From contig JAZQGP010000013.1 in the NCBI GenBank assembly GCA_045540015.1, positions 128,251 to 192,250 of the forward strand: a DNA stretch of 64,000 bases. Reading direction: 5' to 3'. Of this stretch, positions 58,273 through 64,000 are shown piece by piece; within the stretch, counting starts at the first letter, position 1, and each line of letters begins with the position of its first letter. Below the pieces are notes generated by a model, which was not told where the DNA came from, did no database searches, and saw nothing but the letters and a program-made list of their open reading frames with translations. This stretch comes from Eubacteriales bacterium (GTDB taxonomy: Bacteria; Bacillota; Clostridia; Oscillospirales; CAG-382). A program made the translations under genes and the position numbers.

Positions 58273-59070
58273 TCAACGCTTGTTGGGAACATCCGTGATA
58301 TTGTATCCAAAAATGTTTTTATACAGGCGGCTGACGTAATTAGGATCTGAGTATCCGTATAGTGCTGCTGCTTCGTACAGAGGCAGTTTTTTTGTTTCCA
58401 TGAGAGTCTTTATGCTTTTGAGCTTTTCGGAATTTATGTATTTCATCAAGGTTATGCCCTCGTTCTTTTTGAAGATGCTGCACAGATATGTCGGGGTAAT
58501 TCCAAGGTGTTTTGCTATGTCCTTCTGCATTATCGGCTCGGTTATGTGTTTGCTGAGGTATTTCTTTGCTTTATATACATAAATGTAATCGCCCGGCAAT
58601 TCATCGGATAATGTTTTACGGTTGCACTCGTCTATTTTGCAAAGTAAATCCAGGATTTCAGCGGCGCACTTTGTGGGGGAATGCTCGCATATAATGCTGT
58701 TGTGAATAAGCCAGTCTATTTTTCGGCAGATATCAGATGTTTTGTTTTTTTTCTGTGTGACAACGGGCAGAAGAATTCCGCCGTTGTATTTGTCAACCCA
58801 TTCAAGATTTATGCCGACAGTATGATGACGGTGATACCCTTTTGATGTAATGTCTATTTGTCGGTCTCTGACAAGACAGGTGATGTCATTTTCTTCTGCA
58901 ACGTATTGATTTTCACCATCACAAATTGTAATTGAGCCTTTCTCTATATATGAAATCTCAATAAAGTTTTTCTGCGGGTAAAACCGATTGCGATAATCGG
59001 TTGTTCCGTATATATGCGCAAACCTTAATGTCGGCATGGATGTTACTTCTATGGCTTTCACTTGAATCAC
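58273..59070 (-). CDS. AraC family transcriptional regulator
   Basis: N-terminal cupin-like sensor and C-terminal dual HTH (QKDIAKHLGITPTYLCSIFKK...YGYSDPNYVSRLYK). Divergent from GRE operon 2. Confidence 0.9.
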   Translation of the reverse strand: MIQVKAIEVTSMPTLRFAHIYGTTDYRNRFYPQKNFIEISYIEKGSITICDGENQYVAEENDITCLVRDRQIDITSKGYHRHHTVGINLEWVDKYNGGILLPVVTQKKNKTSDICRKIDWLIHNSIICEHSPTKCAAEILDLLCKIDECNRKTLSDELPGDYIYVYKAKKYLSKHITEPIMQKDIAKHLGITPTYLCSIFKKNEGITLMKYINSEKLKSIKTLMETKKLPLYEAAALYGYSDPNYVSRLYKNIFGYNITDVPNKR

Positions 59071-59130
59071 CTTCCATTACGGATTATAAATCAATATGTT
59101 GATTTTGTCAAGATTTCGTAAATATAACAA

Positions 59131-59159
59131 TTGACTTTTTTACTGCAAAAAAATATACT
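59131..59159 (+). promoter_or_regulatory. sigma-70-type promoter of GRE operon 2
   Basis: TTGACT (59131-59136), 17-nt spacer, TATACT (59154-59159). Confidence 0.5.
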
Positions 59160-59194
59160 GACAGTACAAATAATAGGATTGCGGAGGGATTTTT

Positions 59195-61300
59195 ATTAAA
59201 CTCTTTGAAAAACTTAATTCAGAACTTCGTCAAGAATATACCGGAACTTATGCCGATTTCTATTACAGATATCTCGGCTACAAATCGGATATGACTGCTT
59301 CTTATCAGATGTTCCGTGCAAACGGTATATATTCGCTTTTCACAAGCGGAAAACCCGTAATACTCAAAAGTGAACTTATAGCAGGAAACAAAGCCTTGCT
59401 TTACTGTGAAGTAGAAAAGTTCCGTCTTGATTATGCAAAACAGCAACTTGCACTTTTCGGAGCAAGAACGTTCAGAACAAATGCTGACCACTATGCACCT
59501 GACTATGACCGCATTTTAAGTGTAGGAATCTGCGGACTTGAAAAGGAAATAGACATTTCTCTTGAAAAACATAGGGACGATGATAAAAAGTGCGAAACAC
59601 TGCGTTCGATGAAGCGTGTGCTTTGCGGTTTTAAAAAAATGATTGAAAACTATGTTGAAAGCGCAAAGGAATGCATGCAGAATCCGGAATACAATCCCGA
59701 ATATCTTGATTTTATCATAAACAACTGCACTGCAATACTTGAACATAAGCCGCAGAGCTTTGCCGAGGCACTTCAGCTTGTGTGGTTCTGCCATAATTCA
59801 TTCGTTATGGAAGGCAGAAATGCCATGGCTCTCGGACGCCTTGACCAGTATCTGTATCCTTTCTATAAGGCTGATATTGAAAACGGTGTTATAACGGAGG
59901 AAGAGGTAACGGAACTTCTTGAGAATGTATTTATAAAACTCAAATACGATGTTGTAAATATTTGTATAGGCGGTCAGAATTCAAAGGGCGAATGTATGGT
60001 TAACGGACTAAGCTACTGTATAGTGGAGGCTGTTAAAAACTGTAACATACCCGGTCCCAATCTGTCTCTTAGATATACTGAAAACACACCTGACGATTTT
60101 CTTGACAAATGCCTTATATCCATAGGAACAGGTCTTGGGTATCCCGCCATAATGAATGATGATGTTAATATTGCGGCGTTAAAAAAATACGGATATGAGG
60201 AAGAAGACATTTACAATTATTCAATGGTCGGCTGCATAGAAAACTTTATAACCGGAATGCAGCCTCCGTGGACAGACTCACGTTTTGACACTCCGAGATT
60301 TTTTGATTATGTATTCAATAACGGAGAAAGTAAGAAGAACGTGTCCTTCGGTATTGATACAGGAGATGTTGAAAATATAAAATCCATGGATGAATTTATG
60401 GCAGTGTTTGAAAAGCAACTCAGTGCCGGTGTTGAAGAGTATGTTGCGTGTTTCTATGCAAAGAATGACTCTGTAAATCAGCGTTATTATCCCGAGCCCT
60501 TCCTGTCGCTTTTCTGCTATGACTGTATCGGCAGAGGACTTGACATAAACAACGGCGGTGCAAAATATCCCTTTGCTCACGGTGTAGGTCTTATGGGAAT
60601 AGGAACTACTGCAGATTCACTTGCTGCAATAGAAAAGGTGGTTTTTGTAGATAAGAAGGCAAGTCTTACAGACCTTAAAAATGCCATGAACAGTAATTTT
60701 GAAGGGTATGAAGATTTGCATAAAGAGCTTCTTGATGCTCCGAAATACGGAAACAACGATGATTTTGTCGACAAGTATGCGGTATGGTTTGTAGATTTTT
60801 TCGGTTCGTGTTTCAGTAAATACAAAACCCGTGACGGTGGAGGCATTTATATTTCGGCGGCGGCAAATGTCAATAATATATATGCGGGCAGTATGATAAA
60901 TGCAACACCCGACGGAAGAAAACGTGGTCAGCCTCTTTCGGATGCCGCTTCTCCGACGTACGGACGTGATGTCAAGGGTGCGACATCTACAATGAGCAGT
61001 GTGTCGAAACCCGACTACACGAAGATTGCCTGCGGAAGCGTTGTCAACCAGAAGTTTTCGCCTGAAATGTTCAACGAAACGAACAGAAAGAAGCTCGCTT
61101 CACTTATCCGCACATACTTTAAAAAAGGCGGTCAGGAAATACAGATAAATGCAACGTCAAGAGAAGTTCTTGTTGATGCCATGAACAACCCCGATAAATA
61201 CAGAAGCCTTGTTGTCCGTGTTTCAGGATTTTCAGCATTCTATGTTGACCTTGACAAAGCAGTTCAGCTTGACATTCTTAACCGTACTCAGCAGGGGTAA
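59195..61300 (+). CDS. glycyl radical enzyme, short PFL2/dehydratase-like family (paralog 2); probable ATT start
   Basis: Glycyl motif VVRVSGFSAFYVDL and Cys loop MVGCIENF. The frame is open from 59177. GGAGGG (59183-59188) lies 6 nt before ATT 59195. The encoded IKLFEKL... aligns with the MFEKL... start of paralog 1. The first ATG is at 59291. Confidence 0.75.
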   Translation: MKLFEKLNSELRQEYTGTYADFYYRYLGYKSDMTASYQMFRANGIYSLFTSGKPVILKSELIAGNKALLYCEVEKFRLDYAKQQLALFGARTFRTNADHYAPDYDRILSVGICGLEKEIDISLEKHRDDDKKCETLRSMKRVLCGFKKMIENYVESAKECMQNPEYNPEYLDFIINNCTAILEHKPQSFAEALQLVWFCHNSFVMEGRNAMALGRLDQYLYPFYKADIENGVITEEEVTELLENVFIKLKYDVVNICIGGQNSKGECMVNGLSYCIVEAVKNCNIPGPNLSLRYTENTPDDFLDKCLISIGTGLGYPAIMNDDVNIAALKKYGYEEEDIYNYSMVGCIENFITGMQPPWTDSRFDTPRFFDYVFNNGESKKNVSFGIDTGDVENIKSMDEFMAVFEKQLSAGVEEYVACFYAKNDSVNQRYYPEPFLSLFCYDCIGRGLDINNGGAKYPFAHGVGLMGIGTTADSLAAIEKVVFVDKKASLTDLKNAMNSNFEGYEDLHKELLDAPKYGNNDDFVDKYAVWFVDFFGSCFSKYKTRDGGGIYISAAANVNNIYAGSMINATPDGRKRGQPLSDAASPTYGRDVKGATSTMSSVSKPDYTKIACGSVVNQKFSPEMFNETNRKKLASLIRTYFKKGGQEIQINATSREVLVDAMNNPDKYRSLVVRVSGFSAFYVDLDKAVQLDILNRTQQG

Positions 61301-61305
61301 CGGCT

Positions 61306-62061
61306 ATGCTTAATATATCAAATATACAGCATTTCTCTGTAGGTGACGGAGAAGGAATACGCACGACAGTATTCTTTAAAGGATGCAATCTTCGCTGTCC
61401 GTGGTGTCACAATCCTGAAAATCTTGAAAGCGAGCCTGCGATACTTTGCTATAACAACGGCAAAACAGAAGTCAGGGGAGAAAAGGTTACGATTGAACAA
61501 ATATTACCTGAGCTTCTCGAGGATAAGGATTTTTATGACGGAAGCGGAGGGGGAGTAACTTTTTCGGGCGGAGAGGTTATGCTTTGTGCGGAAGAAGCGG
61601 CAGTTCTTGCTAAAGCCCTGAATGAAAACGGAGTGTCGGTGCTTATAGATACGGCAGGCTGTGTGCCGTATGAAAAGTTTGGTGTCCTTAACCCCTATGT
61701 TTCGGGATATCTGTTTGACTTCAAGACTGCGGATGAAGAAAAGTATAAAAGTATAGGCGGCAACCTTTCTCTTGTGACGGAAAATATAGAAAAGCTGAAA
61801 AAAGACGGTGTTCCCATGCATATACGGATTCCCGTAATACCGGGATTTAATTCGGATAAAGATTCGTCAGAACGCATATGCAGATATCTTGAACAAATCG
61901 GCATTGAAAGTGTGCACCTTTTGCCGTTTCACAGACTGGGTAAATCAAAATATGAGGCTATGAACCTTGAATATAAATATGCAGATGTTCTGCCTTTTAC
62001 AAAGGAAGAAATTTGTGAAATCGAAAGCATTTATTCGCAATATTTTAAATTAGAAAGATAG
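61306..62061 (+). CDS. glycyl-radical enzyme activating protein (radical SAM)
   Basis: CNLRCPWCHNPE motif. 251 aa, without the extra ferredoxin-like insert seen in the first activase. Confidence 0.9.
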   Translation: MLNISNIQHFSVGDGEGIRTTVFFKGCNLRCPWCHNPENLESEPAILCYNNGKTEVRGEKVTIEQILPELLEDKDFYDGSGGGVTFSGGEVMLCAEEAAVLAKALNENGVSVLIDTAGCVPYEKFGVLNPYVSGYLFDFKTADEEKYKSIGGNLSLVTENIEKLKKDGVPMHIRIPVIPGFNSDKDSSERICRYLEQIGIESVHLLPFHRLGKSKYEAMNLEYKYADVLPFTKEEICEIESIYSQYFKLER

Positions 62062-62080
62062 ATTTTGGAGGAATTTAATT

Positions 62081-63175
62081 ATGAAAGTAAAAGCAGCAGT
62101 ATTTATGGGCCCGGGTAAAGATTTTGACGTTCGTGAATTTGACGTGACACAGCCGCCTTCGGGCTATGCTCAGATGGAGCTTATCGCAAGCGGAATATGC
62201 GGCACGGATTTGCATATGCATAACGGAAAGCTTGCCACTGGTTTTCCATCAATAAAAGGACATGAATTTGTAGGTAAAATTGTTGAGGCAAACGAAGATG
62301 AACTGAAAAAGTTTGACATGAAAATCGGTGACGCAGTAATTGCGGATATCGCAGTACCCTGTGGAGAATGTATCCTCTGTAAGAACGGCGATGATGCAAA
62401 CTGCGTTAATATGAAGGTTACAAACGGCGGAAGCATTGACGTTGCTCCTTATCTTTACGGCGGATTTGCAGAGATGAATTACACACCTCTTACAAATCTT
62501 ATTAAAATCCCCGAATCTGTAAACCCCTCTGCGGCAGCAGTTTTTGCATGCCCCGGACCTACTGCAGTTCATGCAACCGAACTTGCCAAAAAAGCGGGAG
62601 TAGACTTTACAAAAATAAATACGGCAGTTGTCCAGGGCCTTGGTCCTGTAGGAACATTTGCAGTTATTTATCTTAAGGCACTTGGCGTAAAGAATGTATA
62701 TGCTATAACCGCAGGTAACGATATAACCCGTGAAAATACAGCACTCAGTCTCGGTGCAGACAGAATTTTCAACCTAACAAGAGAGGGCGTTGAAAAGGTT
62801 ACAGAGGAATTGAAAAAGGAAAACGGCGGTCTTGGCGTTGACCTTTGCTTTGAAGCATCCGGTGCCCCGAGTGCTATTTTGCAGGGCTTTGACATTCTCA
62901 GAAACAGAGGTGTATATCTTGTGCCCGGTCAGTACAGTGCATCGGGAGGAATTGAAATCCAACCTCAGATGATTACATTCAAAGCACTGCATATTATCGG
63001 CTCTTCACAGTACTCAGTATGTGATGTGCGAACATACCTTGATTTTTTGGCAAAGCATACGGAGCTTATTGATAAGATTGAAAAGCTTTCCACAAAGTTT
63101 AAGGTATCAGAAATCAATGAAGCCATTGCCTATGCCAAGAGCGGCAAAAACGTAAAAACTGTATTGGTGAAATAA
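62081..63175 (+). CDS. zinc-dependent (MDR-family) alcohol dehydrogenase
   Basis: GICGTDLHM, GHEFVGKIVE, a structural-Zn Cys cluster (CGECILCKNGDDANC), and Rossmann fold GLGPVG. Confidence 0.85.
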   Translation: MKVKAAVFMGPGKDFDVREFDVTQPPSGYAQMELIASGICGTDLHMHNGKLATGFPSIKGHEFVGKIVEANEDELKKFDMKIGDAVIADIAVPCGECILCKNGDDANCVNMKVTNGGSIDVAPYLYGGFAEMNYTPLTNLIKIPESVNPSAAAVFACPGPTAVHATELAKKAGVDFTKINTAVVQGLGPVGTFAVIYLKALGVKNVYAITAGNDITRENTALSLGADRIFNLTREGVEKVTEELKKENGGLGVDLCFEASGAPSAILQGFDILRNRGVYLVPGQYSASGGIEIQPQMITFKALHIIGSSQYSVCDVRTYLDFLAKHTELIDKIEKLSTKFKVSEINEAIAYAKSGKNVKTVLVK

Positions 63176-63176
63176 T

Positions 63177-63950
63177 ATGGATGTTATAATATTCGGCGGT
63201 CAGAGCAATATGCAGGGGCAGAGTGAATGCCTTTCTGAAGAAGCGATTGTAGAAAATGCGTATGAATATAAATTCCTGAAAGACGAACTTGTGCCCCTTA
63301 AAAATCCTGTCGGCGAAAACATCACATATGATTTCAAAGAGGGATATTTGCGTGTAAAGGGAGCACCGTCTGATGAGTGGCGTGATACGCATGTACTGGG
63401 AAGTGCCTGCTATAATCATACAAATCTTGTTCCCGAATTCTGCAGAGCATATATTAGGGAGAACAGCAGAGAAGTTGTTGCTGTTCATGCCGCAAAAGGC
63501 AATACCGAAATTTCCTACTGGCTTCCCGGAAGTGTGGGATATGAAGCACTGGTAAAAAAATCCAAAGCTGCTGTTGAAAAAGTTTGTTCCGAACATATCT
63601 ACTTTGTGTGGCTTCAGGGCGAAAGCGATGCTATAGCAGGTAAGAGTATTGCATACTATAAGGAATGTCTTGCAAAGCTCTGTAACGCACTCAAAAAAGA
63701 TGTCGGCATAGAAAAATTCGGCATCATAAGAGTCGGAAGATTTACAAACGATGAAAGAGACGACAGGATAATATTGGCACAGAGCGAAATATGCAGAGAA
63801 AACGAAGATTTTCTTATGCTGACGGAGATAGCAACTGAACTTAATGAAAATCCTGAATATATGAATCCATTTGTCAAAGGACATTTCAGTGCAAAAGGGC
63901 TTGAGATGCTTGGGCGTGAAGCAGGAAAAACACTCGGAAGACTGTGTTAA
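63177..63950 (+). CDS. SASA-family (sialate O-acetylesterase-like) esterase
   Basis: N-terminal IIFGGQSNMQGQ catalytic-serine motif and WLQGESD. Confidence 0.7.
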   Translation: MDVIIFGGQSNMQGQSECLSEEAIVENAYEYKFLKDELVPLKNPVGENITYDFKEGYLRVKGAPSDEWRDTHVLGSACYNHTNLVPEFCRAYIRENSREVVAVHAAKGNTEISYWLPGSVGYEALVKKSKAAVEKVCSEHIYFVWLQGESDAIAGKSIAYYKECLAKLCNALKKDVGIEKFGIIRVGRFTNDERDDRIILAQSEICRENEDFLMLTEIATELNENPEYMNPFVKGHFSAKGLEMLGREAGKTLGRLC

Positions 63951-64000
63951 AAATAAAATAATTGTTGACAAATACATTAACGTTATGGTATGATAAAATT

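Follow-up and report, generated by a model that had tools for sequence, protein, structure and literature searches.

An accessory operon in a Clostridia genome joins an uncharacterised compact glycyl-radical enzyme to a dehydrogenase and a predicted acetyl-esterase

The reaction is known for only a few dozen glycyl-radical enzymes (GREs), and each addition has exposed a gut or environmental pathway, such as those for choline, hydroxyproline, isethionate and anhydro-sugars. A 2026 review (PMC13450708) lists six C–O, one C–N and three C–S eliminases together with three isomerases. In all of these eliminases and isomerases the Glu of a Cys-X-Glu (CXE) loop touches the substrate, and CXE eliminases also break C–N and C–S bonds (PMC13450708). 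In glycerol dehydratase (GD), the relevant Glu435 deprotonates the C1 hydroxyl and His164 protonates the leaving C2 hydroxyl (PMC13450708). Here we describe a five-gene operon in a 64,000-nt stretch of DNA (the window) from a Eubacteriales bacterium (Clostridia, Oscillospirales; GenBank assembly GCA_045540015.1, contig JAZQGP010000013.1, positions 128,251 to 192,250). It comprises an oxygen-sensitive GRE, its activase, a Zn-dependent dehydrogenase and an esterase, with a divergent AraC-family regulator. Judged by sequence comparison, the GRE belongs to a compact clade that is distinct from every characterised GRE and has no assigned function.

The compact GRE has the conserved domains of the superfamily and lies below every NCBIfam equivalog cut-off. 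It contains the ten-stranded barrel domain (PF02901, PFL-like, 1.7e-129) and the Gly_radical domain (PF01228, 2.4e-28), and its glycyl motif RVSG678FSAF is invariant in the family. Scores for CutC, HypD, HpsG, HpfG, pyruvate formate-lyase (PFL), HPAD and IAD are all far below cut-off, including 375 bits against 1050 for CutC, 365 against 1100 for HypD and 132 against 994 for TIGR01255 (PFL), and TIGR01774 gives 424 against 678. In the PDB, glycerol dehydratase 1r8w is the best sequence match (1e-106), ahead of CutC and propanediol dehydratase. An AlphaFold2 model of the GRE (mean confidence, pLDDT, 94.9) has 1r8w as its best Foldseek match (template modelling score, TM, 0.92; 30% identity) and then 1,2-propanediol dehydratases, the fold matches to both kinds of dehydratase spanning TM 0.92–0.93 at 27–30% identity. 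In a maximum-likelihood tree, the window GRE and ten orthologues form one clade (SH-aLRT 100%) apart from GD, the genome's own 855-aa GRE, PflD, YbiW and CutC; GD and the 855-aa GRE group with PflD and YbiW, PFL is the outgroup, and the tree does not fix the place of the compact clade among the eliminases. Among 1.84 billion cluster representatives, about 15–20 clusters of 690–726 aa and 37–61% identity were recovered before scores blend into the canonical GREs of ~790–810 aa, and members of the clade come from gut and rumen Clostridia. NCBI names close orthologues "DUF3029 family protein", a label that is misleading since TIGR04040 gives 25 bits where its cut-off is 498. Identity with YjjI/DUF3029 was rejected on this score and on a PF11230 match of only 28 bits over 180 residues (130–309 of the 669-aa ATG-start translation). 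The clade has no counterpart among the GREs of the 2026 review (PMC13450708), and a literature search found nothing on a ~700-aa GRE clade, on "DUF3029" with a glycyl radical, or on quinate, shikimate or inositol as GRE substrates. The preliminary description of this locus had suggested an uncharacterised substrate family, and both the review and the NCBIfam scores agree with a clade that has no assigned function.

The active site combines the catalytic residues of a diol dehydratase with a substituted pocket. Pocket residues were assigned by alignment to GD, CutC and PFL. In this alignment GD residues His164, Cys433, Glu435 and Asp447 correspond to His99, Cys347, Glu349 and Asp361, which are invariant in 71–77 orthologues down to 47% identity, and the Cys loop, GC347IE349N, contains the CXE motif. 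An eliminase or dehydratase type had been proposed earlier from the Cys loop, and the family-wide invariance of the GD-type His and Asp as well as of the loop upholds it. At the positions of GD Ser282, Tyr339 and Tyr640 the window GRE has Ala210, Val and Ala. These three GD residues reportedly hold glycerol or propanediol, as O'Brien in 2004 and LaMattina in 2016 are said to have found. Orthology to GD or 1,2-propanediol dehydratase (PD) was rejected on these replacements, the TIGR01774 score and the separate clade. Compared with GD, PD, CutC, YbiW, PflD and PFL, the window GRE lacks 17 residues of the loop that leads into strand beta-3, where CutC and HypD have an aromatic residue packed against the substrate. 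As in PFL, strand beta-6 is shorter by one residue; it contains Arg363, conserved to at least 97% and aligned with PFL Arg435. The short beta-3 loop and a signature of DH, GC[IV]E, PWxD-xR, A[AS]N and RVSGFSA extend across the wider compact clade to identities as low as 37%. These features suggest dehydratase-type chemistry in a larger pocket, as located by alignment, that may recognise an anionic group.

The activase departs from those of most GREs. Nearly all GRE activases contain a ferredoxin-like domain, the only ones without it being those of PFL and class III ribonucleotide reductase (PMC13450708). The window activase lacks this auxiliary-cluster domain, a feature of GRE eliminase activases: its Radical_SAM domain (Pfam, 1.9e-18) has the CX3CX2C motif only, with no ferredoxin-like Cys motifs, and it matches TIGR02494 (234 bits, cut-off 174) in two segments on either side of the missing ferredoxin insert. 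This bears out its earlier description as minimal. Across the family, the CxxCxxCxxxC motif is missing in 54/64 activases, and the ferredoxin-like domain is kept in 10 more distant ones (GRE identity 46–53%). The compact family is thus a natural experiment on activases: distant members retain the domain, and most of the rest have lost it. Loci L054, L056, L068, L074, L075 and L077–L080 form a distant branch whose activases have the ferredoxin-like two-cluster domain.

The two remaining enzymes belong to well-known families. The dehydrogenase is a Zn-dependent medium-chain dehydrogenase/reductase (Zn-MDR) with GroES-like and Rossmann domains (ADH_N and ADH_zinc_N, GxGxxG present), and its catalytic-Zn motifs GICGTD and GHEFVG, structural-Zn motif CGxCxxCx7C and GLGPVG motif are conserved in 51 orthologues. 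Its best NCBIfam matches are threonine, idonate and inosose dehydrogenases, all far under cut-off; the weak best families are thus secondary-alcohol or polyol dehydrogenases, and the nearest PDB entry is 1vj0 (1.2e-37). The esterase belongs to SASA (PF03629, 71 bits), and 26 orthologues keep its blocks GQS10NM (with the catalytic Ser), WLQGESD and GH236F. It is probably cytoplasmic because the catalytic motif lies at the extreme N-terminus. Its AlphaFold2 model (pLDDT 95.5) is nearest to 1zmb, a clostridial putative acetylxylan esterase (TM 0.72), and 2apj, and then to the sialate esterase NanS (3pt5, TM 0.62). These fold neighbours leave the acyl acceptor unsettled, and the protein is predicted to be a SASA/CE6-like carbohydrate O-acetyl esterase. 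The motifs named in the preliminary description (VRVSGFSAF and GCIE in the GRE, GQSNM in the esterase) are all present.

Neighbourhood counts identify the dehydrogenase as a core partner of the compact GRE and an intracellular acetyl-esterase function as a recurrent but optional one. The survey covered 80 loci of gut and rumen Clostridia, one of them (L079) from an isolate, Hydrogeniiclostridium mannosilyticum ASD2818, which has the core set of AraC, GRE, activase and dehydrogenase genes; partners were counted in the 53 loci with complete flanks. An activase is present in 44/53 (83%), a dehydrogenase in 38/53 (72%), a SASA esterase in 17/53 (32%) and either a dehydrogenase or a SASA esterase in 44/53 (83%). 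An association of the GRE with both dehydrogenase and esterase had been proposed from this locus; it holds for the dehydrogenase and for SASA only in the minority just given, with GDSL or BD-FAE esterases in some other operons. The exact five-gene layout is found in six of the complete loci, and a divergent AraC gene lies at most 400 bp upstream in 31 of the 63 loci with enough upstream sequence. Gene order varies: six loci have GRE, activase and SASA esterase without a dehydrogenase, three have the SASA gene immediately upstream of the GRE, and in eight (L017, L019, L042, L044, L063, L066, L070 and L071) the GRE is followed by the dehydrogenase without an intervening activase gene. The putative operon usually contains no further genes. 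We searched a pool of 103 operon-extra co-directional proteins and 136 flanking proteins for Pfam families. The commonest family among the 103 was the GDSL esterase (7 proteins), with a BD-FAE esterase also present and GH38 in 4. Only esterases, helix-turn-helix regulators and a few GH38 proteins recur in the pooled set, and the flanks are mixed (183 families among the 136 flanking proteins). The candidate substitutes in loci without a dehydrogenase proved to be an XRE regulator and a beta-lactamase-fold hydrolase and were rejected, neither being a dehydrogenase. A cluster of 733-aa neighbour "proteins" was discarded as an antisense open reading frame (ORF) of a GC-rich GRE gene, at least in L073.

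The compact GRE is one of several in its genome and is patchily distributed among relatives. The 2.35-Mb genome has eight GRE genes, on contigs C1, C4, C13, C14, C52 and C56: one PFL, one canonical 855-aa GD/PD-type enzyme on a contig other than that of the window, and six compact GREs (659–735 aa). The compact genes adjoin a CE4 deacetylase with GH36, a CE2-like esterase, GH77, a DMT transporter or, in the window's other GRE operon (GRE1), a GH36-like gene, so that the pattern of compact GREs beside carbohydrate-active enzymes noticed earlier in the window is real across the genome. The two GREs of the window had been assigned to the same small clade. This is unsupported: the GRE described here (GRE2) is closer to the 855-aa dehydratase-type enzyme (32% identity, ~320 bits) than to any compact paralogue, including GRE1 (27%, ~230 bits), and the maximum-likelihood tree does not unite GRE1 and GRE2, although an approximately unbiased (AU) test does not reject their joint clade (p = 0.26). 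GRE1 lacks the dehydratase-type His and Asp. Monophyly of all compact GREs is likewise neither recovered in the tree, where the paralogues sit on very long branches, nor rejected (AU p = 0.087). One paralogue in the same genome (735 aa, C1:5295–7502) has an unusual Cys loop, DLCQD, without the CXE Glu and an unusual glycyl motif, VRLWGVCAHF; it is flanked by an activase on one side and a phosphodiesterase-like gene on the other, with a CE4 deacetylase and GH36 close by. GRE2 is absent from 13/13 other species of the genus and present in 1/23 other genomes of the family, and it occurs in a few genomes from other families in this order; the operon behaves as a patchy accessory module. Some relatives have up to 17 GRE-like candidates, and genome G058 of the same order has two tandem compact GRE copies at 48–49% identity to the query (contig C12:27147–31576).

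We favour, at slightly better than even, a reading in which the locus is an AraC-controlled accessory operon that takes a substrate larger than glycerol through de-O-acetylation, radical dehydration (with the GRE as a 1,2-eliminase) and NAD(P)H-dependent reduction. Gene content, catalytic-residue conservation, fold and gene linkage are established, and from them we infer the reaction, the order of its steps and the substrate class. The cytoplasmic SGNH/SASA esterase would strip an O-acetyl group and so supply a free hydroxyl for the radical step. The radical-SAM-only activase would place the radical on Gly678, from which it would move to Cys347; the Cys347 thiyl radical would then abstract a hydrogen next to a substrate hydroxyl, Glu349 would deprotonate that hydroxyl, and His99, with Asp361, would assist departure of the neighbouring oxygen substituent. 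The carbonyl product would be reduced by the adjacent Zn-dependent dehydrogenase, giving a net reductive deoxygenation that may serve as an electron sink. The substrate is most likely neither glycerol nor 1,2-propanediol bound in the usual way, with the pocket apparently remodelled for a larger and possibly anionic compound (Arg363). A GRE reaction not yet described can be put forward tentatively, although we hold it to be rather doubtful: radical dehydration of a free, non-phosphorylated vicinal diol of sugar size that is released from an O-acyl ester by the esterase, held through a carboxylate by Arg363 and, once dehydrated, reduced by the Zn-dehydrogenase. Candidate substrates are uronic, aldonic and sialic acids and cyclitol acids, for example quinate and shikimate.

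Several observations count against the three-step reading, and other functions have to be weighed beside it. Among the 103 and 136 pooled proteins Pfam revealed no conserved transporter, kinase or downstream catabolic gene; the neighbourhood therefore gives no handle on the substrate and fits a small diffusible diol too. The esterase is missing from about two-thirds of loci and the dehydrogenase from about one-quarter, so neither is obligatory. The pocket-lining roles of Arg363 and of the substituted residues are predicted from alignment, and the HMMER and MAFFT alignments are offset by one residue around Arg363. Finally, this GRE copy may be poorly expressed because of its ATT start codon (below). 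The simplest alternative is that the operon has the same function as known small-diol dehydratases (acting on glycerol, 1,2-propanediol, ethylene glycol or 2,3-butanediol), with the dehydrogenase in the role of DhaT or PduQ and the esterase a loosely linked passenger. The shared His, Cys, Glu and Asp, the GD and PD structures as nearest neighbours, a GRE-activase-dehydrogenase trio like DhaB1-DhaB2-DhaT, the fact that small diols need no transporter and the lack of an esterase in ~68% of complete loci all fit this alternative. We nevertheless consider it improbable: Ala, Val and Ala stand in place of the reported substrate holders, part of the Tyr339 loop is missing, the TIGR01774 score falls short, the clade is separated from GD and PD with full SH-aLRT support, the genome already holds a canonical GD/PD-type GRE, and esterases of three families recur in the operon. 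Quite unlikely, in our estimate, is a YbiW/PflD-type isomerase that opens a ring C–O bond in an anhydro- or deoxy-sugar without a phosphate, leaving a deoxy-ketose for the dehydrogenase to reduce. In the tree YbiW and PflD fall with GD and PD outside the compact clade, the PTS, kinase and aldolase partners of the E. coli loci are missing here, and His99 and Asp361 are typical of diol dehydratases, even though isomerases share the CXE motif, the pocket appears enlarged, the weak best matches of the dehydrogenase are secondary-alcohol or polyol dehydrogenases, and some loci lie near GH38 or near Gfo/Idh/MocA with a xylose-isomerase-like TIM barrel. A lyase whose leaving group is an amine, a sulfonate or, with an O-acetylated substrate, acetate could draw on the C–N and C–S chemistry of CXE eliminases, on the conserved Arg363, which could bind an anionic group, and on the link to acetyl-ester chemistry. 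It is very unlikely given scores for the CutC, IslA-type and HpsG/HpfG models far below cut-off and neighbourhoods with no sulfite reductase, trimethylamine-related or microcompartment genes; were acetate the leaving group, moreover, the esterase would be counter-productive.

A further alternative concerns the state of this copy, namely that the operon is a recently acquired, decaying accessory island that is being lost from this genome, with an ATG-to-ATT change that largely silences the GRE. The open GRE frame reaches back to 59177, and ATT 59195, 6 nt after GGAGGG, is the first codon of the conserved N-terminal sequence MKLFE.... The preliminary length of ~700 aa was thus right (701 aa), with the start corrected to a position upstream of the first ATG (59291), from which the protein would be 669 aa; orthologues are 700–701 aa long. 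The closest relative, the metagenomic locus L094 (95.5% identical), has the same five genes, an identical ribosome-binding site and ATG at the codon equivalent to 59195. Of 66 aligned orthologues with a residue at that position, 56 start there with ATG, GTG or TTG, none uses ATT, and the remaining ones seen start within a codon or so of it. A single G-to-T change in the GRE start codon of this genome therefore appears to have occurred. AUU can start translation, at low efficiency. The uniqueness of this ATT, the ATG of L094 at the same place and the absence of the operon from all 13 other species of the genus are what decay would predict. Against it, the four plus-strand reading frames are whole, with no stop or frameshift, all family-invariant GRE residues are retained, synonymous codon changes exceed non-synonymous ones in all four genes in comparison with L094, the ribosome-binding site is strong, and an assembly consensus error may account for the ATT. 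We therefore regard decay as unlikely. Compared with L094, the esterase gene (63177–63950 against L094:5194–5967) is a mosaic in which the central ~400 nt are 76–80% identical and the ends 89–100%, which suggests a recombination patch; the other three plus-strand genes are 96–99% identical.

The five genes are a genuine, self-contained operon, intact apart from the ATT start (Table 1). They are closely spaced, with gaps of 5, 19 and 1 nt among the four plus-strand genes in the ORF map, and the gene set and order first reported, with AraC divergent from the GRE, activase, Zn-dehydrogenase and SASA esterase, were confirmed by ORFs, Pfam and NCBIfam. The AraC regulator has its C-terminal double helix-turn-helix domain, and its N-terminal sensor or ligand-binding half matched no Pfam family. 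No riboswitch was detected in the operon leader. There is no terminator-like hairpin 3' of the esterase gene, so read-through past it is possible. The gene just beyond the window end (genome C13:192287–197869) encodes an 1860-aa surface protein with a signal peptide, an S-layer homology (SLH) domain, a WbsX-like domain and three C-terminal repeats of ~130 aa each.

Table 1. Features of the compact GRE operon and its control regions (positions within the window)
Feature	Position	Strand	Basis or remark
AraC-family regulator, 265 aa	58273-59070	-	Pfam HTH_18 1.1e-12, HTH_AraC; divergent from operon
Divergent control region	59083-59188		Consensus scan and sequence
Promoter-like site for AraC gene	59111..59083	-	12/12 consensus; pattern match
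Promoter-like site for operon	59131-59159	+	TTGACT-17-TATACT; pattern match
Ribosome-binding site GGAGGG	59183-59188	+	Sequence
Compact GRE, 701 aa	59195-61300	+	ATT start; 669 aa from first ATG 59291
Glycyl-radical activating enzyme, 251 aa	61306-62061	+	Radical SAM domain only, C27x3C31x2C34
Zn-MDR, 364 aa	62081-63175	+	Pfam ADH_N, ADH_zinc_N
SGNH-fold SASA/CE6-like O-acetyl esterase (predicted), 257 aa	63177-63950	+	Pfam SASA 1.2e-19
Strong promoter-like site for next gene (SLH surface protein)	63965-63994	+	TTGACA-18-TG-TATGAT

If the tentative reading of a new GRE reaction is right, the operon would be a two-step reductive deoxygenation module and an electron sink of herbivore-gut Clostridia, and the six compact GRE lineages in a 2.35-Mb genome, each beside different carbohydrate esterases or glycosidases, would represent an unexplored radical carbohydrate toolkit. 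The compact clade is common in rumen and hindgut Clostridia and can be recognised by its signature, which makes it a good target for enzyme discovery; identification of the substrate could reveal a new anaerobic pathway for compounds of plant or host origin.

In comparison with described systems, the operon is an uncharacterised GRE with known kinds of partner and not a new kind of system. It is closest in logic to DhaB1/DhaB2/DhaT of Clostridium butyricum (PDB 1R8W), which has the same His, Cys, Glu and Asp and the same set of GRE, activase and alcohol dehydrogenase. Relative to DhaB1, however, the window GRE is ~86 residues shorter, including a 65-residue shorter N-terminus and a 17-residue deletion in the Tyr339 loop, and Arg363 replaces Ala449/Phe450; the window activase lacks the ferredoxin-like domain, and the operon has an esterase partner. 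DhaT is an Fe-type alcohol dehydrogenase, whereas the window reductase is a Zn-MDR. The 1,2-propanediol dehydratase of Roseburia inulinivorans (PDB 5I2A/5I2G; also 9RCO–9RCQ) has the same CXE, His and Asp and a closely similar fold (TM 0.92–0.93, 27–29% identity), but the window operon lacks a microcompartment context and its GRE falls in a separate clade. The E. coli isomerases YbiW and PflD, which act on 1,5-anhydroglucitol-6-phosphate and 1,5-anhydromannitol-6-phosphate, resemble the window GRE in their CXE loop and fold (TM 0.88–0.91) and take sugar-sized substrates; these are phosphorylated and handled with phosphotransferase system (PTS) and aldolase partners, whereas the window operon has no linked kinase or PTS, and both enzymes group with GD and PD apart from the compact clade. 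The likeness to YjjI/DUF3029 consists of a weak, partial PF11230 match and the name that NCBI gives to close homologues. With PflB/PflA the operon shares a radical-SAM-only activase, a beta-6 strand of the same length and an Arg aligned with Arg435, and it differs in the Cys loop, where PFL has a Cys-Cys pair and the window GRE has one Cys and then Glu.

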